Shown: positions 17,429 through 27,642, numbered from the stretch's first letter. The stretch: DNA of 64,000 bases from Escherichia coli (GCF_013122565.1 NZ_CP053258.1); one strand, 5' to 3'. Made by a program: numbers and translations. Notes: a model not told the origin generated them from the sequence alone.

Positions 17429-18064
17429 TCACATGCATGGGGTCACAAGGAGCCAGCTTAAAAGCGTCTCCTTGATAACCTTATGTCTGTTCTCCAAAGC
17501 CTCAGGAGATATCATACTGATGTGATAAACCAACCCTAAAGTATGTTGGTTAAGAATATAATATCCAGCAAGAGCGGCAAGGCTAATGTTTACCTGTAAT
17601 GGATCTATATCTTGCTTAAAGATATTTTGTTTTTTTCCTTCATCAAGCAACCTTTCCATAATCTCTAAATGCGAGTGGTTAATTTCGGGCAAACGAGTTG
17701 ATTTCTTGTAGTGCTCCCCTCGACTTTGGTTTTCGGAATGAATTATCTTTAAAAACCAAGGATTCTTCACATAATAATCCCACGTAAAATCAATAAATTT
17801 TTCAATGGATTGCAATGGGTTTAGTCCAGTAAAGTCCAGATCTCTTTCTTTTTGCCGGATGTCATTACACGTATATTCAAGGACTTCAATAAACAAATTC
17901 TCTTTATTACCAAAATGATGATAAACAGTCTGCTTACTACAACCGGCTGCTTTAACAATATTATCGACCCTGGCACCTTCATAGCCATACTCTGCAAATT
18001 CATTGATAGCGCACAGTAATAATTTTTCTTTCAAAATTTGCACTTTACTAGTATCAAAATACAT
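17429..18064 (-). CDS. TetR/AcrR-family transcriptional regulator
   Basis: N-terminal TetR HTH ([28 protein letters not shown]); AT-rich; start placed at ATG 18064 with GAGGG RBS (track ORF begins at GTG 18070). Confidence 0.85.
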
Positions 18065-18430
18065 CTTCACCCCTCACACTAATCTTGCCAACCTATTATA
18101 TACTCTTTTACCGCGTGACCACGCACATTTTTCATACAAAAATCATCATTATCTTACAGAGCATTAAACCTACTTACATTGTTTCGTTACTGTGAAACAG
18201 ACAGAAAATTTTTCCTTGATGCATATTTGTTAAAAATGGAATATGGCTTTAATTAATTATATTCATATAATGAATATTTAACTATAAATAATTAATTCCA
18301 TTTATTTTCAAAGAGTTATAATTTTAAATATGATCTCCCTCACGAATCAACCAACTAGATGGTTGGTTCAAATAAAATCTATAGGCATCTTTGTCTCCAT
18401 GATGAATCCTGTATTTAAAGAGGTCCAAAA

Positions 18431-19222
18431 ATGAAATCAAAAAAACCCGTTGCTATTATTACCGGTGCTGCCCGTGGTATCGGTAAAGGTTGTGCTATTG
18501 AACTAGCTCGCGCTGGATTTAATCTTCTAATAAATGATCGACCAGATAAAGACAGCATCGAAAAACTTAAAGCAACTCAAAAACTATGTATCGCTGAAGG
18601 TGTTGAAGTCATAACGTTTCCAGCCAACATTGGCGATTTAACGTTACATGAAAAGATGCTCGACGCGGCGCAAAATCAGTGGGAGCGTTTGGACTGCCTG
18701 CTCAATAACGCCGGAATTTCGGTGAAAAAGCGTGGTGATATTCTCGACCTGGAGCCAGACAGTTTCGACGATAACATTGCCATCAATACCCGCGCACCTT
18801 TCTTCCTCGCCCAGGCTTTCAGCAAGCGCCTGTTGGCGCAACCCAAACCAGAAGCTGAACTACCGCATCGCTCAATTATTTTTGTCAGCTCAATTAACGC
18901 CATCATGCTGGCGATGAATCGAGGTGAGTACACCATTGCCAAAACAGCTGTATCTGCCGCTGCCCGCCTGTTTGCCGCACGTCTTTGTGAAGAGCAAATT
19001 GGCGTTTATGAAATCCGCCCAGGTTTAATCAAAACCGATATGACTATTCCAGCAACAGCTTATTACGACGAACTGATCGCTAAGGGGTTAGTGCCATGGG
19101 GTCGTTGGGGTTTTCCACAGGACATCGCCTCCACTGTCCGTGCAATGGCGGAAGGCAAACTGATTTACACCTGTGGTCAGGCGGTCGCCATCGACGGCGG
19201 CTTAAGTATGCCACGCTTCTGA
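18431..19222 (+). CDS. Short-chain dehydrogenase/reductase (SDR) family oxidoreductase
   Basis: TGAARGIGKG nucleotide-binding motif, NNAG, catalytic Y-x3-K (YTIAK). Confidence 0.88.
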   Translation: MKSKKPVAIITGAARGIGKGCAIELARAGFNLLINDRPDKDSIEKLKATQKLCIAEGVEVITFPANIGDLTLHEKMLDAAQNQWERLDCLLNNAGISVKKRGDILDLEPDSFDDNIAINTRAPFFLAQAFSKRLLAQPKPEAELPHRSIIFVSSINAIMLAMNRGEYTIAKTAVSAAARLFAARLCEEQIGVYEIRPGLIKTDMTIPATAYYDELIAKGLVPWGRWGFPQDIASTVRAMAEGKLIYTCGQAVAIDGGLSMPRF

Positions 19223-19231
19223 GGCTGAACC

Positions 19232-20074
19232 ATGAGAGATCTGTTACATCGCCCGGATTTATTCAGCATCAATACCGCGACGCTGGGCTATAAAATGCCT
19301 CTGCCCGCCCTTATTGATGCTTGTGCCGCACGCGGCATCGGTGCGATTGCCCCCTGGCGCAGAGAGTTGCAGAGCGAAGATCTTCAGCAAATCGTCCGCC
19401 AGCTTGCCGCCAATAACATGAGCGTTTCTGGTTTATGCCGTAGCACCTACTACACCGCGCCGACGCTGGCAGAGCGCAAGCTGGCGATTGATGATAACCG
19501 CCGGGCGCTGGACGACGCAGCGATGCTGAACGCCGCCTGTTATATGCAGGTGGTTGGCGGTCTGCCAACGGGCACTAAAGATCTGTATGAAGCGCGGGAG
19601 CAAGTGAAAGAAGGGGTTCGCCAGTTGCTGTCACATTCGAAAGATGTCGGCGTGCCGATTGCACTGGAGCCACTGCACCCGATGACTGCTGCCGATCGCT
19701 CTTGCCTCTGCTCGCTACGTCAGGCGCTGGACTGGTGTGATGAACTCGATCCCGATGGTGAGTTTGGCCTCGGCGTGGCGGTCGATGTCTACCACGTCTG
19801 GTGGGATCCGGATCTCACCAGTCAGATCCTGCGCGCTGGAAAACGGATCCTCGCGTTTCATGTTTCCGACTGGCTGGTGCCGACGACCGATCTGGTCAAT
19901 GATCGGGGAATGCCGGGAGATGGCGTCATCAATATTCCGTCAATTCGTCGGCTGGTTGAAAACGCCGGATTTAATGGTTCTATCGAATTAGAAATATTTT
20001 CTTCATTCTGGTGGGAAAAGAATATCAACCAAATACTGGATAAAAGTATTAACGGACTTTCTTATTATTGTTAA
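19232..20074 (+). CDS. Sugar phosphate isomerase/epimerase-like TIM-barrel protein (xylose isomerase-like fold)
   Basis: 280 aa; family assignment by overall pattern only; 9 bp after SDR stop. Confidence 0.6.
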   Translation: MRDLLHRPDLFSINTATLGYKMPLPALIDACAARGIGAIAPWRRELQSEDLQQIVRQLAANNMSVSGLCRSTYYTAPTLAERKLAIDDNRRALDDAAMLNAACYMQVVGGLPTGTKDLYEAREQVKEGVRQLLSHSKDVGVPIALEPLHPMTAADRSCLCSLRQALDWCDELDPDGEFGLGVAVDVYHVWWDPDLTSQILRAGKRILAFHVSDWLVPTTDLVNDRGMPGDGVINIPSIRRLVENAGFNGSIELEIFSSFWWEKNINQILDKSINGLSYYC

Positions 20075-20223
20075 ACATCACACTATATTTTTCTCTCGAA
20101 ATTAGTTGATTGTTTAAATTTGCATGTTTTAGAAAGTTATGAGTGAAGTAATAAATCAATAAATTAAATATCTTACAGAGCATTGCGAGTGTTAGGTATT
20201 TATAATCAAATAGGGATTGGCAT

Positions 20224-21765
20224 ATGAGCAAGATTAATACTGCAGAAATACTGGTCGCAGGTATTAAAGATGGCGCAACAATCGCCATTAGCGGTAATGG
20301 CGGTGGAATGGTTGAAGCCGATCATCTACTACAAGCTCTGGAAACACGGTTTCTGGAAACCGGGCATCCATGTAACCTTACGCTTATACACTCATTAGGT
20401 GTAGGAGACCGTGAACACAAAGGCAGTAACCGTTTTGCTCATAAAGGAATGTTAAAGCGTGTTATTGCAGGACATTTCACATGGTCACCAAGAATGCAGG
20501 CTCTGGTTAAGAATAATGAGGTCGAGGCTTATTGCTTTCCTAGCGGAGTTATTCAGACATTATTACGTGAAATAGGCGCTGGACGTCCAGGACTGTTCAC
20601 CCATGTCGGGGTAGGAACTTTTATTGATCCGCGTAATGGAGGAGGGAAATCTAATTCACGAACGACAGAGGATCTGGTAGAGCTAATTGAAATTGATGGA
20701 GAAACAAAGCTACGCTATCGCCCATTTAAAGTTGATTACGCAATTGTGCGCGGTACTTATGCGGATTCACGCGGTAATATTAGCCTGGAAGAAGAAGCCG
20801 TCGATCTGGATTGCAATTCTATAGCTCTAGCTGCCCATAATAGCGGTGGTAAAGTCTTTGTGCAGGTACGTGACATTCTTGAAACAGGTGCGATTGAACC
20901 CAGACGAGTAAAAATACCCGGAATCTTAGTCGATGGCGTCGTGGAATATAGAGATCAACAACAAACATATCTTGGTGGTTACGATCTTACTATCAGCGGC
21001 CAGCATCGTCGTCTTTGTTCTCAAAACTCTATTGAACTGGTTTCAAACCCAATACGTCGATTAATTGCACGCCGTGCAGCACGCGAGTTAGTTGCTGGCG
21101 CATCCACAAACTTTGGCTTTGGCATGCCAGGAGGGATCCCAGGTATTGCTCTGCGTGAAGGAGTCCCTTTTGATACCCTTTGGCTCAGCGTGGAACAAGG
21201 TGTGCATAATGGCATGATGCTGGATGATGCTCTGTTTGGCTGTGCTCGCAATGCTGATGCGATAATTCCTTCTCTTGAGCAGTTTGATTTTTATAGTGGT
21301 GGTGGTGCCGATATAACTTTTCTCGGTATGGGGGAAATGGATCAGTATGGAAACGTGAATGTTTCCCATCTCAACAATAACCTTATCGGACCAGGCGGTT
21401 TTATCGAAATTGCACAGAATGCCCATAAAGTGGTGTTCTGCGGCACGTTTGATGCCAAGGGTAGCAAAATAAACGTCACAAATGCGGGCCTGGAAATCAT
21501 TCAATCCGGCCAGGTAGCAAAACTTGTTTCACAAGTAGAAGAGATAACTTTCAGCGGAGAATATGCGCAACAACGTAAACAGGATGTGTTGTACATTACC
21601 GAGCGCGCTGTATTCCAGTTAACGCCACAGGGTGTGGAACTAATTGAGGTTGCCCCTGGCGTGGACATTGACCACGACATTCTGCCGTATATGGCCTTCC
21701 GTCCAATTATCAAGCACCCACGCCTGATGGAAAGTAGTCTGTTTACGCCGATGGAGGATGCATGA
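20224..21765 (+). CDS. Acyl-CoA:acetate/3-ketoacid CoA-transferase, fused alpha-beta (YdiF-like, family I)
   Basis: 513 aa; clear colinear similarity to E. coli YdiF as recalled (GHFTWSPR, GVGTFIDPRNGGGK, FDFYSGGGADITFLGMGEMDQYGNVNVS, ITERAVF). Confidence 0.85.
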   Translation: MSKINTAEILVAGIKDGATIAISGNGGGMVEADHLLQALETRFLETGHPCNLTLIHSLGVGDREHKGSNRFAHKGMLKRVIAGHFTWSPRMQALVKNNEVEAYCFPSGVIQTLLREIGAGRPGLFTHVGVGTFIDPRNGGGKSNSRTTEDLVELIEIDGETKLRYRPFKVDYAIVRGTYADSRGNISLEEEAVDLDCNSIALAAHNSGGKVFVQVRDILETGAIEPRRVKIPGILVDGVVEYRDQQQTYLGGYDLTISGQHRRLCSQNSIELVSNPIRRLIARRAARELVAGASTNFGFGMPGGIPGIALREGVPFDTLWLSVEQGVHNGMMLDDALFGCARNADAIIPSLEQFDFYSGGGADITFLGMGEMDQYGNVNVSHLNNNLIGPGGFIEIAQNAHKVVFCGTFDAKGSKINVTNAGLEIIQSGQVAKLVSQVEEITFSGEYAQQRKQDVLYITERAVFQLTPQGVELIEVAPGVDIDHDILPYMAFRPIIKHPRLMESSLFTPMEDA

Positions 21766-23834
21766 GTCAGCTTGATGACACCATCCTTGATGCGCTGACA
21801 CACGTCACTTTCCCAAAGGGGTTTGTGTCAGCAGAGCCAACACCAATTGTCACCGTTGAGGATGTTGATTACCCGATCTGGCACGTTGATGCGCTGGTCG
21901 TTGGTAGCGGCGCAGCAGGATTACGTGCGGCAGTTGAACTTAAACGCCGCCAGCAAAATGTGCTGATCGCTACCGCCGGGTTATATATGGGGACGTCGGC
22001 ATGTTCTGGTTCCGATAAACAGACACTGTTTACCGCCGCTACCGCGGGCAACGGCGACAACTTCACCAAACTGGCAGAGGCACTGGCGAGCGGTGGGGCG
22101 ATGGATCACGACACCGCTTATGTCGAAGCGGTAGGTTCTCTGCACACTCTAGGCGGGTTGCAATATCTTGGTCTGGAATTACCGGAAGATCGCTATGGCG
22201 CGATTCTTCGTTATCAAACCGACCATGACGAAGCTGGGCGTGCAACCTCGTGTGGGCCGCGTACCTCAAGGTTAATGGTGAAAGTGCTGTTGGAAGAAGT
22301 ACAGCGCCTCGCCATTCCAGTGTTGACCAGTGCAACAGTGATTAAACTGCTGCATCAGCGTGACGAAAACGGCGAAGACCGCGTGGCAGGGGCAATCCTC
22401 GCGACCGGTCATCGCGCCCATAACCCATGGGGGCTGGCAATTGTGACTGCGCCCAATGTGGTACTGGCAACGGGCGGACCGGGCGAGCTTTATCGCGACA
22501 GTGTTTATCCACATAAATGCTTCGGCTCGCTGGGGCTGGCGCTGGAGGAAGGTCTGACGCTAACCAATCTGACCGAAAGCCAGTTTGGTATAGGCACACC
22601 GCGCAGCACGTTTCCGTGGAATTTGTCCGGCACCTATGTGCAGGTGATCCCGTATATCTATTCCGTGGATGCTGAGGGTAACGAGTATAACTTCCTCGCG
22701 GATTACTATCGCACCACCCAAGAGCTGGCTTCAAACATCTTCCGTAAAGGCTATCAGTGGCCGTTCCACGCCACGCGGGTAATGGATTTTGGCTCCAGCT
22801 TGTTAGATATGGCGGTGGCGCAAGAACAGCAACATGGTCGTCTGGTGTTTATGGATTTCAATCGTAATCCTGAAGCGGTGCCTGGTGATCTACCCTTCTC
22901 ATTAGATCGACTGGACGACGACGTTCGCGCGTATCTGGAAAATAACGACGCTCTGGCACCATCGCCCATCGAACGGCTGCAACGAATGAATCCGCTGTCT
23001 ATCTCGCTGTATAAGATGCACGGTTACGATCTCACCACGCAGCCATTGCAGTTTGCCATGAATAATCAGCACATGAATGGCGGCATTGAAGTGGATATCT
23101 GGGGACAAACATCCCTGCCCGGTTGTTTTGCAGTGGGAGAAGTAGCCGGTACTCACGGCGTTACCCGACCTGGCGGCGCGGCGCTGAATGCCGGACAGGT
23201 TTTTGCCGTGCGTCTGGCGCGCTTTATTGGTTGCACACAAAAGCGGTCTGTTGAGGAGGATGTCGCGCAGCTGGTAGCCTCATCTCTGCATATAGTCAGA
23301 GAAGTTATCGCTCAGGCACTGGCAAACGAGAACGGAATGGCGCTGGTAACGGTGAAAGAAAAAATCCAGGCGCGAATGTCTGATTACGCTGGATTTATTT
23401 GTCATGCCGATAAAGTTCGTCACGCCACCCGTGACGCCCTGCTGTTAAGTGAGTTTGTACAACAACACGGTTTGACCATCAAACATGTTGGCGAAATTGC
23501 CGAACTATTTATGTGGCGGCATATGGCACTGACTTCTGCCGCCATATTGACACAATTGACGCATTATATTGACGCAGGTGGCGGCAGTCGTGGGGCGCGG
23601 ATAATTATTGATCACTATGGGGAAGGTCTACCACAAACTCGACAGGGTGCAAAAGAAAAATGGCGTTTTAGATTGGAGTCTGAAAATGAAAGAGAATCAC
23701 GAGCAACGATTCAGCTTAACAATGGAGAATTTATAATAAATAAAAACAAGATACGTCAAATAATCAATTTCAAAAATAATTATTTTGAAAAAAATTGGCC
23801 GGAGTTTCTCCTTGGAGAAATCTATATAAAATAA
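21762..23834 (+). CDS. FAD-dependent oxidoreductase (fumarate reductase/succinate dehydrogenase flavoprotein-like), with unusual AT-rich C-terminal extension
   Basis: N-terminal dinucleotide-binding motif VVGSGAAGLRAA; 690 aa; ATGA start/stop overlap with upstream CoA-transferase. Confidence 0.8.
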   Translation: MSQLDDTILDALTHVTFPKGFVSAEPTPIVTVEDVDYPIWHVDALVVGSGAAGLRAAVELKRRQQNVLIATAGLYMGTSACSGSDKQTLFTAATAGNGDNFTKLAEALASGGAMDHDTAYVEAVGSLHTLGGLQYLGLELPEDRYGAILRYQTDHDEAGRATSCGPRTSRLMVKVLLEEVQRLAIPVLTSATVIKLLHQRDENGEDRVAGAILATGHRAHNPWGLAIVTAPNVVLATGGPGELYRDSVYPHKCFGSLGLALEEGLTLTNLTESQFGIGTPRSTFPWNLSGTYVQVIPYIYSVDAEGNEYNFLADYYRTTQELASNIFRKGYQWPFHATRVMDFGSSLLDMAVAQEQQHGRLVFMDFNRNPEAVPGDLPFSLDRLDDDVRAYLENNDALAPSPIERLQRMNPLSISLYKMHGYDLTTQPLQFAMNNQHMNGGIEVDIWGQTSLPGCFAVGEVAGTHGVTRPGGAALNAGQVFAVRLARFIGCTQKRSVEEDVAQLVASSLHIVREVIAQALANENGMALVTVKEKIQARMSDYAGFICHADKVRHATRDALLLSEFVQQHGLTIKHVGEIAELFMWRHMALTSAAILTQLTHYIDAGGGSRGARIIIDHYGEGLPQTRQGAKEKWRFRLESENERESRATIQLNNGEFIINKNKIRQIINFKNNYFEKNWPEFLLGEIYIK

Positions 23835-23937
23835 ACGCCTTTTAAATCGGTAGCTATTAAATAAATATTTTATGATTTGCAAAATTCACGCTTTTACATT
23901 GTGAGTATTTTCTATTGATAATATCAAAGGTTTAATC

Positions 23938-25218
23938 ATGAAAAAAATCAAGCACTATAGGTGGCATATTATCGTCTTAATATGTTTCATCACTGTAATT
24001 AATTATTTGGACAGAACAGCATTAGGCGTGGCCGCGCCCACAATAATGCAAACGATGGGGATAACTAAAGAGCAATATTCATGGGTTGTCAGTGCATTCC
24101 AGTTAGCATATACAATTGGACAACCTGTAATGGGATTCTTTATTGACCTTATCGGTCTGAAATTTAGCTTTTTCATTTGCATTATAATCTGGGGACTTGC
24201 CACTATGGGGCACGCATTAGCGGGATCCTGGCAAGGTTTGGCCTTTATGCGTGGCCTGATGGGAGTAAGTGAAGCCTCCGTCTTTCCCGCAGGGATAAAG
24301 ACTGTATCGACGTGGTTTCCTGCTAAAGAACGCGGTATTGCTGCGGGATTCTTCAACACGGGTACATCTCTTGGTGCCATGCTTGCTCCACCGCTTATTG
24401 CCTGGTGCATAATGTTCCATAGTTGGCAATTCGCATTTCTGGTTTCTGGCTGTCTGGCATTATTTGCGGCAGTGATGTGGTTTATCTTTTATAAAGACCC
24501 CAAAGATGCCAAAGGACTTTCTGAAGAGGAAAGACACTATATAGAGTCTGGGCAAGAAAAACATCTTGATTCTAATAAAAGTAAAAAAGCAACCATTCTT
24601 CATGTTATTAAAAAACGCAATTTCTGGGGTATTGGCATTACCCGTTTCCTGGCAGAACCAGCTTGGGGAACAATCAACTTTTGGGTACCTATATTTTTCG
24701 TTGAAACATTGCATTTCAGCTTAAAAGATATAGCAATGTTTATCTGGCTCCCGTTTTTATTAGGTGACTTGGGTTGTTTATCTAGTGGTTTTATCGCTAA
24801 GTTTTTTCACGATCGCGGGGTTAGCCTTCTTAATGCACGAAGAATTACATTTACATTCGCTGCAACAACGATGATGTCGATTGGTTTGGTTAGCATCGTC
24901 ACTAATCCGTACATTGCTGTATTACTAATTAGTATCGGTGCATTCTCACATCAATGCCTATCTACTGTTGTTGCCACTATGGGGGCCGATCTTTTTGAAA
25001 AAGAAGAAGTCGCAACAGTAGTTGGATTATCGGGAGGGTGTGGATATACAGGGCAACTGATATTTAATATATTCATTGGTGTATTCGTTGCTGCAATTGG
25101 CTTCTCGACATTCTTTGTGATACTTGCCTTCCTGGATATTATTGGTGCCATTATTTTATGGTCTGTAATTAGACCACCGAAACTTGTTGAACAAACAAAT
25201 TTAGTAACACAATCGTAG
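23938..25218 (+). CDS. MFS transporter, anion:cation symporter (ACS)-like, probable organic-acid permease
   Basis: 426 aa, 12-TM pattern, N-terminal YLDRTALGVAAP motif. Confidence 0.85.
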   Translation: MKKIKHYRWHIIVLICFITVINYLDRTALGVAAPTIMQTMGITKEQYSWVVSAFQLAYTIGQPVMGFFIDLIGLKFSFFICIIIWGLATMGHALAGSWQGLAFMRGLMGVSEASVFPAGIKTVSTWFPAKERGIAAGFFNTGTSLGAMLAPPLIAWCIMFHSWQFAFLVSGCLALFAAVMWFIFYKDPKDAKGLSEEERHYIESGQEKHLDSNKSKKATILHVIKKRNFWGIGITRFLAEPAWGTINFWVPIFFVETLHFSLKDIAMFIWLPFLLGDLGCLSSGFIAKFFHDRGVSLLNARRITFTFAATTMMSIGLVSIVTNPYIAVLLISIGAFSHQCLSTVVATMGADLFEKEEVATVVGLSGGCGYTGQLIFNIFIGVFVAAIGFSTFFVILAFLDIIGAIILWSVIRPPKLVEQTNLVTQS

Positions 25219-25269
25219 TTTTTATTTTTACCTATAGAATTTTAATCGAAAAAAAATAAAGGAAAGATT

Positions 25270-25749
25270 ATGTCTCAAACAGAAATTATTCTTCCTTCAG
25301 GAAGAGAACTTACTCCAGGTGAATATGGTTATGCCAATCTGGAACCTGGCGATCACTACCAGACTCCCGGTCTTAACGTAACAGAGTCACAGATTGTTGC
25401 TTTTGCGGGGATAAGCGGTGATTTTTTCGATGTTCATATGGATGATGAATTTGCAAGGGAAAAAGGATTTCCAGGACGCATTGCCCACGGTCTGTTAGGT
25501 TTAGCATTGACGGACGGCCTGAAGAATCGTTCTATTGTACGTTTACGTGCAGTTGCTACATTAAACTGGAACTGGTCATTCTGTGCACCATTATTGCCTG
25601 GAGATCATATTCACGCCGTTATTACTGTTGTTAAAAAACGCCCCACCAAACGTGAAGACCGAGGCATTGTGACTTTTGCTTTACAATTGTTTAATCAACA
25701 TGGAAAGATAATACAGCGAGGCGAAACTCTGCTGATGATGATGCAATAA
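25270..25749 (+). CDS. MaoC-like (hot-dog fold) dehydratase / enoyl-CoA hydratase
   Basis: 159 aa; GRIAHGLLGLALTDGL hot-dog motif; AGGAAA RBS. Confidence 0.8.
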   Translation: MSQTEIILPSGRELTPGEYGYANLEPGDHYQTPGLNVTESQIVAFAGISGDFFDVHMDDEFAREKGFPGRIAHGLLGLALTDGLKNRSIVRLRAVATLNWNWSFCAPLLPGDHIHAVITVVKKRPTKREDRGIVTFALQLFNQHGKIIQRGETLLMMMQ

Positions 25750-25868: not shown

Positions 25869-27137
25869 CTAAATTGACGACCTGAATGCCTCTGCCATTA
25901 ACTCTTGCTCACGATCAGGTAATCTAAGACGCTCGGCAATAGTTTGCCACTGACTGACAATCCCTCTAAAATTAGCAATAATGTCATCAGCTTCCGTCAA
26001 ACTAAGTCGAAAATACTCTGCAACTTCTCTAGCTAATTCCAAATCAAGTGCATTATCATTTTCCGTAATATTAAGCTTTAAACCGTCAGATCTGGAAACA
26101 GGATTCAAATCATATGCTTCAGAAAGCCGCCAACCTTTTCCCGGTATCAAGATATATCCATGATTACGTAAATGATCATCGGTATTAGAAACAAGAATAT
26201 TAAAAACAATTCTGGACCAGAGTTCTTTAAGGTCAGTATTGGTCTGCGCTCCGTGCCTGATAAGAACATCTGCTAATTCCAGATAACTTACACCTGTAGA
26301 GGCATCTTCACCATCCTGATGTCTGGTTAGTGTCATAGCCGAAGCAAAATGCAGACGCCTTCCCGCATTAGTGCGGTCAAAACGACGAACCATAAAACAA
26401 TGGTAATTGCTGGCAAATTTATGCGCCTGAGCAGGTGCAACATTCAGTCCACAGCCAACAGCAAGCGCATTAACGACCATTTCCCATCCACCAACATCAT
26501 ACTCATCTTTTGCACTGGGAAATTTAGCGATGTAAAGATGTCCGGCTTCATCAACCACACTGGCTTTTGGACGTGCACCCCCTAATGATCCCCCCGGAGC
26601 GATTAGCATTCTTAACCATTTTTGCCCCATGAGTTCTTTATTATCAGGATCTTCTTCAATTGCCCGGCTAGCCCTTTCCAGACTCGCTATTTCGGTAAAT
26701 GGTGGGGCTGCAACATTAATGCGGTTATCAAGAAACTCTCCAGCGTCTTCACGTTTGTATCGAAGAGCCCCAACCCGATAAAGATCATGAACACCTAATA
26801 GATAGTCAGACTCATAAAGGTGGGAGTCTTTATCAAATAACCCATCTCGAATATCCCTCTCAAAACGACGCTTCATTAGCATACGCCCCCAACGATCCGG
26901 GCAGGAATCACTAAACGCACCAAATTTATCCTTTGGAGGAATTGGGTACTGTGCTCCCTCATACAACATTATTTCAGGATCTAACTGAATGAAATTAAGT
27001 GCACGATCTGCAAGCGCCTTTTTATCGTACTCAAACTCAAATATCTCACGCGCCCGAGTGCGACGACTGTGTAAATAACCAATACGCGCAGGACCATCCA
27101 GGCCTTCCCAATCCGCATACACTCCGATTAATGCCAT
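25869..27137 (-). CDS. HipA-family serine/threonine kinase (type II toxin-like)
   Basis: 422 aa; P-loop-like GGSLGGARPK and catalytic NTDDHLRNHG motifs in HipA order; AAGGA RBS. Confidence 0.8.
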   Translation of the reverse strand: MALIGVYADWEGLDGPARIGYLHSRRTRAREIFEFEYDKKALADRALNFIQLDPEIMLYEGAQYPIPPKDKFGAFSDSCPDRWGRMLMKRRFERDIRDGLFDKDSHLYESDYLLGVHDLYRVGALRYKREDAGEFLDNRINVAAPPFTEIASLERASRAIEEDPDNKELMGQKWLRMLIAPGGSLGGARPKASVVDEAGHLYIAKFPSAKDEYDVGGWEMVVNALAVGCGLNVAPAQAHKFASNYHCFMVRRFDRTNAGRRLHFASAMTLTRHQDGEDASTGVSYLELADVLIRHGAQTNTDLKELWSRIVFNILVSNTDDHLRNHGYILIPGKGWRLSEAYDLNPVSRSDGLKLNITENDNALDLELAREVAEYFRLSLTEADDIIANFRGIVSQWQTIAERLRLPDREQELMAEAFRSSI

Positions 27138-27150
27138 AATTAATTTCCTT

Positions 27151-27642
27151 TTATCGGTTTTTTATCGGTTTTTTTATCGGTTGTAATAGTGCAGCAAGAG
27201 AGGTTGACGTTTCCCCTGGAATAGTTGGCGTTGAGTCTTTTGCCAGTGCTGTTAAATCCGTGGTGAGATGACCTTCTTTCTCGCGTTTCGTCTGAAATGA
27301 GGCTGTCTGAATCCCTTCTTCATTCTTAACTGATGAACGAGAAAGCCCTCTTTTTTTAATCAAACGGGAATCCTGGAGCTGATGCCCTAAGGCGTCTTCA
27401 GCTGCAAGCTTATTTAAATCCGTTTCCAGGCCCAAAACCTGCATCACAGACAAATATGCCCCTATCGTGACCCCTGCACTTCCTGCCTCCAGAGAACGCA
27501 ATGTGATTGGCGACATCCCTGCACGCTCAGCAACTTGCTTTGCGGTTAGCTTACGTCGTAAACGAGCAAGTTTCAGACGCTCACCAAATTCACTAAGCAT
27601 CTGATTCGTATAAGGGAGTAACGGTGCTGTTTTTTTACCCAT
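27151..27642 (-). CDS. XRE-family HTH protein (HipB-like putative antitoxin) with long low-complexity C-terminal tail
   Basis: 163 aa; HTH ~residues 16-75 ([23 protein letters not shown]); 13 bp upstream of kinase gene on same strand. Confidence 0.75.

Follow-up and report, generated by a model that had tools for sequence, protein, structure and literature searches.

The window, the whole 64,000-nt stretch of Escherichia coli DNA analyzed here, contains an operon on an island between ytfB and rplI of an Escherichia-type chromosome. The genes of the cluster and the features at the junction between its CoA-transferase and flavoprotein genes are as follows.

17429–18070, minus strand: divergent TetR-family regulator (PF00440 and PF17938)
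18431–19222, plus strand: SDR, assigned from profile matches
19232–20074, plus strand: xylose-isomerase-like TIM-barrel gene, 9 nt after the SDR gene
20224–21765, plus strand: fused alpha/beta family I CoA-transferase of 513 aa, YdiF/Pct/FadX-like (PF01144 and YdiF alignment)
21744–21796, plus strand: predicted RNA hairpin in which the Shine-Dalgarno stretch GGAGGAU pairs with AUCCUU in flavoprotein codons 8–10
21753–21758, plus strand: Shine-Dalgarno sequence GGAGGA of the flavoprotein gene (positions −9 to −4), within the final CoA-transferase codons (M-E-D-A)
21762–21765, plus strand: ATGA overlap, from ORF reading, with the same PGAP annotation
21762–23834, plus strand: FAD_binding_2 flavoprotein of 690 aa with the N-terminal extension ILDALTHV (PF00890 and AlphaFold2 model)
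23938–25218, plus strand: ACS-type MFS transporter, downstream of the flavoprotein gene in the same cluster
25270–25749, plus strand: MaoC-like dehydratase, further downstream in the same cluster

The TetR-family regulator next to the SDR gene is conserved in many homologous clusters, and SDR, TIM barrel and flavoprotein together make up a widely conserved core. Upstream of the CoA-transferase gene lies an AT-rich gap of 149 nt (20075–20223). A search of this gap found no residual similarity to a crotonase gene, and its interpretation as a crotonase deletion scar was rejected. Two architectures of the island exist, one having a crotonase and the other a MaoC hydratase, at alternative positions.

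The first gene of the overlapping pair encodes a family I CoA-transferase, with the PF01144 domains in one chain (1.3e-24) and an aligned catalytic glutamate. Residues 7–508 align with E. coli YdiF (PDB 2AHU; E = 1.7e-119), and the catalytic glutamate E324 corresponds to YdiF E333 in the VE(T/Q)G motif. The protein reaches no curated equivalog cut-off among FadX, AtoD and SCOT: NCBIfam FadX matched at 6.9e-116 with 387.9 bits, below its cut-off of 750, and AtoD and SCOT scored lower than FadX.

The second gene encodes a flavoprotein that matches PF00890 at 3.6e-28 (99.3 bits, cut-off 20.4) and has thousands of homologues; its GxGxxG motif, VVGSGAAG, spans residues 45–52. An AlphaFold2 model built from 68 homologues reached a pLDDT of 93.7 and a pTM of 0.94. 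The best PDB matches of this model in Foldseek were SdhA/FrdA (prob 1.0, target-normalised TM 0.7–0.8, 15–19% identity), followed by L-aspartate oxidase and APS/PAPS reductase alpha. Together, the PF00890 domain, the N-terminal GxGxxG motif and the SdhA/FrdA fold of the model identify the flavoprotein as a distant member of the SdhA/FrdA/NadB/AprA superfamily. It belongs to no named equivalog (fumarate reductase, succinate dehydrogenase, L-aspartate oxidase or TfrA), all NCBIfam scores falling far below cut-off, with TfrA as the best (127 bits against 718) and NadB at 97.6 bits against 452. The ACSGSDKQ segment presumably occupies the position of the SdhA covalent-FAD histidine motif. No gene for an FrdB/SdhB-type Fe-S partner is present in the flavoprotein's cluster, and a search for a characterized member of the family found none.

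The two genes share a strand, and the flavoprotein gene is in the −1 frame relative to the CoA-transferase gene. Read in the CoA-transferase frame, the sequence at the junction is ccg atg gag gat gca TGA; the flavoprotein frame gives ATG agt cag ctt. The flavoprotein ATG (21762–21764) is overlapped by the CoA-transferase TGA (21763–21765) in the context gcATGAgt (21760–21767), a spacing of −4 nt, and both ORFs include 21762–21765. The junction is a −4 NTGA pair, formed by two real genes on one strand with an NTG start that shares its TG with a TGA stop. RefSeq/PGAP annotates the same 4-nt overlap and the same flavoprotein start in E. coli homologues. The sequence-only reading had proposed this overlap between a CoA-transferase and a flavoprotein gene, and both the geometry and the two gene identities (PF01144 and YdiF for the one, PF00890 for the other) were correct.

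An overlap of this kind is only as good as the start codon that creates it. A better-supported start further downstream had been named as what would refute the overlap, and the next in-frame start after ATG 21762 is GTG 21825 (V22). Were that the true start, the overlap would be an artefact of ORF calling or annotation and the genes would be separated by a 60-nt spacer. Some distant family members (35–40% identity) do lack about 24 N-terminal residues and align from query residue ~30–43, as a downstream start would predict. However, initiation at GTG 21825 would cost the flavoprotein its conserved N-terminal motif (..ILDALT.V..P). The motif ILDALTHV.FPK at residues 8–20 is conserved at the protein level in essentially all of the ~80 orthologous loci, down to 44–57% identity. 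Its version in the window is MSQLDDTILDALTHVTFPKGF, and other loci carry ..(P)Q.ILDALTDV.MPR. The 80 reference-genome loci with the motif come from Enterobacterales, Rhizobiales, Rhodobacterales, beta-proteobacteria, Planctomycetota and Lentisphaerota, and the orthologous start codons sit consistently 4–9 codons ahead of it. The AlphaFold2 model also places a confident helix at residues 6–13 (pLDDT ~85–91), and a strong Shine-Dalgarno sequence precedes ATG 21762. We therefore rejected GTG 21825 on the conservation of the motif and consider an annotation artefact extremely improbable. In the upstream direction, the flavoprotein frame is closed by a TAG at 21735–21737, 27 nt before the ATG, and there is no start codon in between. 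Because of this in-frame TAG and the loss of the conserved motif from GTG 21825, the start at ATG 21762 is secure; judged from sequence, it is certainly the functional flavoprotein start, and hence the overlap is real.

The Shine-Dalgarno sequence is separated from the ATG by a spacer of 4 nt, counted from GGAGG. Its duplex with the 3′ end of 16S rRNA has a calculated energy of −9.3 kcal/mol, which no other gene of the operon matches: the remaining five range from −3.4 to −6.5. The predicted accessibility of the initiation region is low, with a probability of being unpaired of 0.36 for positions −15 to +3. The predicted hairpin has a minimum free energy of −35.9 kcal/mol with a z-score of −1.73 for the single sequence, and it is possible that it sequesters the Shine-Dalgarno sequence of the flavoprotein gene. 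An RNAalifold consensus retained the stem that pairs the Shine-Dalgarno sequence, with a covariation term of +0.3 and no compensatory changes. Given the weak z-score and this absence of covariation support, a conserved sequestering hairpin is no more than a possibility. A consensus scan of the junction detected no terminator-like site and no promoter-like site on the plus strand; the two genes are presumably co-transcribed. A programmed frameshift yielding a fusion protein was also considered and rejected: reading by eye the ~25 nt before the CoA-transferase stop, we saw no slippery heptamer of the form X XXY YYZ.

Conservation of the junction was examined in an alignment of ten sequences, comprising the window, three E. 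coli, Escherichia sp. MOD1, E. whittamii, E. albertii, Klebsiella oxytoca, Salmonella enterica and Entomohabitans teleogrylli. ATGGAGG and ATGA were invariant in all ten clusters with the order CoA-transferase to flavoprotein, while the flanking third-codon positions varied and mean column identity was 88%. The glutamate codon within the Shine-Dalgarno sequence is GAG, not GAA, in every sequence. Nine of the ten junctions have the −4 overlap. The tenth, from Entomohabitans, carries a 2-nt insertion before the ATG that shifts the CoA-transferase frame, which ends at a TAA and overlaps the flavoprotein gene by 14 nt. K. oxytoca and S. enterica retain the overlap with flavoproteins 76–78% identical, and in both species the island is found at the corresponding chromosomal position, flanked by ytfB and rplI. 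Of 5426 complete E. coli genomes, 3125 carry the pair, with 80–90% DNA identity to the window, and the window is nearest to Escherichia sp. MOD1-EC7003, with 94% protein identity. The sequence-only reading had offered conservation of the overlap in homologous clusters as a check, and for clusters of this gene order the alignment found it.

Outside this clade the flavoprotein gene has other neighbours. Direct CoA-transferase-to-flavoprotein adjacency was restricted to Escherichia, Klebsiella, Salmonella and Entomohabitans, accounting for 5 of the 80 reference-genome loci plus two additional loci (L088 and L089). About 68 of the 80 had no CoA-transferase in the retrieved flanks, which extended up to 7 kb and were shorter on some contigs. 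The remaining seven (Raoultella, Pantoea, two from Bradyrhizobium, Mangrovicella, Mameliella and Tropicimonas) have a different CoA-transferase within 7 kb, 37–40% identical, which is always paired with a crotonase, never adjacent to the flavoprotein gene and sometimes on the opposite strand. The gene immediately upstream of the flavoprotein is an SDR, typically at +4 to +12 nt, in Planctomycetota, Lentisphaerota, beta-proteobacteria and the metagenomic P0124 loci; an MFS transporter at +8 to +11 nt in the Phytobacter/Kosakonia/Mangrovibacter type; a TIM-barrel gene in Brenneria and Accumulibacter; a GMC oxidoreductase in Agrobacterium; and a 389-aa Gfo/Idh/MocA oxidoreductase at −4 to +29 nt in 20 alpha-proteobacterial loci.

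These junctions are often as tight as the one in the window. The flavoprotein start falls within −14 to +13 nt of the preceding stop in 36 of the 76 loci with a measurable junction, and with such varied neighbours, tight spacing therefore belongs to the flavoprotein gene in whatever operon it sits. Exact −4 junctions occur at nine of the 76 loci, and in five of the nine the upstream gene is not a CoA-transferase (Gfo/Idh/MocA in four; a 97-aa ORF at locus L042). Overlaps of −4 nt evidently arose repeatedly and independently, with different upstream neighbours. The comparison also suggests how the enterobacterial arrangement came about. Most likely, an ancestor shared by Escherichia, Klebsiella, Salmonella and Entomohabitans gained a CoA-transferase gene, with or without a hydratase gene, ahead of its flavoprotein gene, and the arrangement was then kept; the pattern may reflect insertion in the enterobacterial clade or loss from relatives such as Brenneria.

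The sequence-only reading had gone beyond the overlap to equimolar expression and a possible complex of the two proteins. On this account the overlap would enforce 1:1 synthesis, and CoA-transferase and flavoprotein would assemble, perhaps co-translationally, into a heteromeric complex. General statistics lend this some weight: among co-directional E. coli gene pairs spaced at −8 to +10 nt, 30.4% encode subunits of a heteromeric complex, compared with 6.8% when genes lie more than 20 nt apart (PMC10666635). The junction is also strictly conserved inside the clade, and CoA-dependent modules recur near the flavoprotein family in unrelated lineages. However, the same statistics leave 69.6% of tightly spaced pairs, about 70%, encoding no complex (PMC10666635), and the comparative evidence argued against one. 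Across the 80 reference-genome loci, neither adjacency nor co-occurrence of the pair extended to distant lineages, adjacency being limited to the four genera; orthologues with the same N-terminal motif instead adjoin SDR, MFS, TIM-barrel, GMC or Gfo/Idh/MocA genes, equally tightly, and the other CoA-transferases found nearby are the divergent, crotonase-paired ones that are separated from the flavoprotein gene or on the other strand. YdiF, SCOT and 4-HB-CoAT, relatives of the CoA-transferase, assemble as homo-dimers or homo-tetramers (PMC3180442).

Natural fusions of the two proteins were likewise absent among the homologues. The only two-domain candidates, P0023 (1078 aa) and P0032 (1043 aa), failed as Rosetta-stone fusions: both come from E. 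coli and arose by in-frame deletion across the junction, which removed the CoA-transferase C-terminus and the flavoprotein N-terminus, in P0032 together with the FAD GxGxxG region. Evidently, the two are decay products and not evidence of an interaction. P0150 was also discarded as a CoA-transferase fusion, the flavoprotein being joined there to an OYE-type FMN domain instead. Because the co-occurrence and fusion tests were both negative, we consider complex formation unlikely. Its fuller form, in which the enterobacterial CoA-transferase and flavoprotein would be a physically coupled CoA-transferase-linked enoyl/acyl-CoA oxidoreductase with a stoichiometry set by the overlap, appears more doubtful still. 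If it were true, the unit would represent a new type of two-enzyme complex, belonging to an uncharacterized pathway in which oxidation of keto-sugar/cyclitol type is combined with CoA-dependent steps and which over half of the complete E. coli genomes analyzed carry.

Nor does a −4 overlap imply equimolar expression. Reinitiation efficiency varies widely, and reported coupling efficiencies span orders of magnitude (PMC12548453). The flavoprotein gene has the operon's strongest Shine-Dalgarno sequence, which allows de novo initiation to supplement whatever coupling provides. Of the sequence-only reading as a whole, the overlap, the start codon, the gene identities and the conserved junction stand and translational coupling is plausible, while equimolar expression and the complex are unsupported.

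What the junction does resemble is a common bacterial arrangement. [quoted passage not shown] It is probable that two successive genes of an accessory catabolic operon simply meet in a routine NTGA junction of −4 nt, likely with coupled translation. Coupling from the CoA-transferase to the flavoprotein gene is plausible by analogy with native E. coli overlap pairs, four of the five tested being coupled by termination–reinitiation, usually with the help of an intragenic Shine-Dalgarno sequence, bioBF being the uncoupled one (PMC6728339). In such a mechanism, a ribosome finishing the CoA-transferase would stop at the TGA directly on the flavoprotein AUG and would reinitiate there, assisted by GGAGGA. 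Alternatively, passage of the ribosome might open local structure that otherwise masks the Shine-Dalgarno sequence. Independent initiation driven by that sequence would probably occur on top of coupling.

The same features could instead be read as neutral packing, with the flavoprotein translated de novo from its own strong Shine-Dalgarno sequence and translation of the CoA-transferase having little influence. The −9.3 kcal/mol duplex at a usable spacing would suit this explanation, as would the tolerance of a 14-nt overlap in Entomohabitans and the existence in E. coli of bioBF as an uncoupled −4 overlap (PMC6728339). Against it, an intragenic Shine-Dalgarno sequence is typical of the tested E. 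coli pairs, where it usually aids reinitiation, and four of those five pairs are coupled (PMC6728339). The predicted local structure and the accessibility of 0.36 at the Shine-Dalgarno and start region also disfavour free binding of the 30S subunit, and a ribosome terminating on the AUG sterically blocks simultaneous de novo initiation (PMC12548453). We therefore hold neutral packing to be rather doubtful and favor a coupled routine junction. Most likely, the junction reflects operon compaction and the co-expression of enzymes of one pathway, not the need for a 1:1 complex.

The genes around the flavoprotein give an indication of that pathway. A dehydrogenase of SDR or Gfo/Idh/MocA type, a TIM barrel resembling xylose isomerase, the flavoprotein and a transporter make up the conserved core, which points to an uncharacterized oxidation pathway in which a sugar-acid or cyclitol-like carboxylate would feed CoA-dependent steps. 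At the beta-proteobacterial locus L039, MaoC, an acyl-CoA dehydrogenase and ETF lie beside the TIM-barrel and flavoprotein genes. Because of this locus and the seven with a CoA-transferase and crotonase, a recurrent pathway-level link between the flavoprotein module and CoA-dependent enzymes is apparent, with no fixed CoA-transferase partner. In the window, the junction marks the joining of a CoA-dependent module to a widespread, uncharacterized module of dehydrogenase, TIM barrel and SdhA-like flavoprotein.

A literature search on the ytfB–rplI island and its E. coli proteins returned nothing relevant. The junction is an unstudied but typical −4 overlap, already annotated in thousands of RefSeq genomes, and its practical value is that it fixes the flavoprotein start codon. 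Polar or nonsense mutations and insertions in the CoA-transferase gene would probably lower flavoprotein expression, and knock-outs in this operon are therefore best designed in-frame. The uncharacterized catabolic island is of more interest than the overlap itself.

The flavoprotein shares its overall fold and PF00890 FAD domain with SdhA/FrdA, NadB and APS/PAPS reductase alpha, but is ~100 residues longer and carries a lineage-specific N-terminal motif. The ydiF gene presumably sits in another cluster (ydiF-ydiO-...). The CoA-transferase aligns with YdiF (2AHU) end to end with the catalytic glutamate conserved, whereas YdiF is a homo-tetramer without a flavoprotein partner (PMC3180442).

Known overlap pairs offer a closer comparison. 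An annotated 50-kb region of E. coli surrounding the island includes tamA/tamB, with a spacing of −4, and ulaE/ulaF, with −1. The tamA/tamB junction lies nearby on the E. coli chromosome, at a distance of ~19 kb, and has an ATGA-type −4 overlap like that in the window; in contrast to the CoA-transferase and flavoprotein, its products are annotated as autotransporter assembly complex proteins. The bioB/bioF pair also combines a −4 overlap with two enzymes of one pathway and no indication of a complex, although the bioF Shine-Dalgarno sequence is very weak and that of the flavoprotein gene is strong (PMC6728339). The bioB/bioF case shows that neither coupling nor a complex can be deduced from an overlap by itself.

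The tested E. coli pairs menD/menH, astD/astB, hyfH/hyfI and ydbH/ynbE of Huber et al. resemble the window junction most: TGA and ATG are shared on the same strand, a Shine-Dalgarno sequence lies in the 3′ end of the upstream gene and structure is predicted at the initiation region (PMC6728339, PMC10666635). Both astDB and menDH are among the coupled pairs (PMC6728339), menDH comprising two enzymes of menaquinone biosynthesis (PMC10666635). For these pairs coupling has been measured, whereas for the pair in the window it is predicted. The window junction further differs in its unusually strong Shine-Dalgarno sequence (GGAGGA), its short 4-nt spacer and its place on an accessory island and not in the core genome. 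To our knowledge, neither astDB nor menDH forms a complex; like the CoA-transferase and flavoprotein, the enzymes of these two pairs are consecutive in one pathway.

The 690-aa FAD_binding_2 flavoprotein encoded in the window (21762-23834) and in loci L003-L087 belongs to a large family: at E <= 1e-30 and 50% identity clustering, it comprises 413 clusters. A search for a characterised member of this family returned none. The usual neighbours of its gene encode Gfo/Idh/MocA proteins, SDRs, GMC oxidoreductases, AP_endonuc_2 TIM barrels, sugar-type transporters and LacI/GntR/TetR regulators. Occasional finds are CoA modules, ETF, a flavodoxin (Raoultella locus L013, 9134-9637) and an OYE fusion (protein cluster P0150). 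This neighbourhood suggests an uncharacterised keto-sugar/cyclitol-type oxidation pathway; of 5426 complete E. coli genomes, 3125 carry the candidate pathway.

Near the flavoprotein gene, some loci carry a second, distinct CoA-transferase with 37-40% identity to that of the window. A crotonase gene always lies directly downstream of its gene, and the two open reading frames overlap or abut (overlaps of 4 nt in L013 and 8 nt in L014 by longest-ORF coordinates). The two genes look like a conserved CoA-transferase/hydratase pair that recurs near the flavoprotein across unrelated lineages.

Second CoA-transferase plus crotonase in the retrieved loci
L013, 2958-5311
L014, 137-2513
L063, 332-2667
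L087, 9312-11662
L043, L051 and L062, opposite strand

The island between ytfB and rplI (window 17429-25749; loci L001, L002, L008-L012, L088 and L089) occurs in two architectures. Its alternative slots are filled by two non-homologous (de)hydratases, crotonase versus MaoC, and both are present in the Entomohabitans island. In the window, the gap between the TIM-barrel and CoA-transferase genes retains no trace of a crotonase gene.

Island architectures and features of the window
17429-25749, window type: TetR / SDR-TIM-(149-nt AT-rich gap)-CoAT-FAD-MFS-MaoC
Common E. coli/K. oxytoca/S. enterica type: TetR / SDR-TIM-crotonase-CoAT-FAD-MFS, without MaoC
20075-20223: AT-rich spacer of 149 nt between the TIM-barrel and CoA-transferase genes
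25869-27642, - strand: 422-aa HipA_C-domain protein gene, preceded by that of a 163-aa HTH_31/HTH_3 protein, 13 nt apart

The spacer could contain an internal promoter or regulatory site that would set apart CoAT-FAD-MFS-MaoC as a separate transcription unit; a simple sigma-70 scan of it gave nothing above threshold. The HipA_C and HTH_31/HTH_3 genes, which lie at the end of the island nearest rplI, look like a HipBA-like toxin-antitoxin pair; E. coli EC23HZZ201 has a broken HipA-like gene, in two short hypothetical ORFs.

The CoA-transferase/flavoprotein pair itself shows signs of decay in some E. coli lineages (L001, 7500-9572; P0023 and P0032). In strain ECCWS199 the flavoprotein gene is an annotated pseudogene with an internal stop, and the protein clusters P0023 (11 member sequences) and P0032 are in-frame deletion fusions across the CoA-transferase/flavoprotein junction.

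At the flavoprotein N-terminus (residues 1-22, window 21762-21830), the motif (P)Q.ILDALT.V.MP(R/K), with a predicted short helix at residues 6-13, is kept across phyla in the orthologous subclade and is absent from more distant family members. The fold of the family is SdhA/FrdA/NadB-like.
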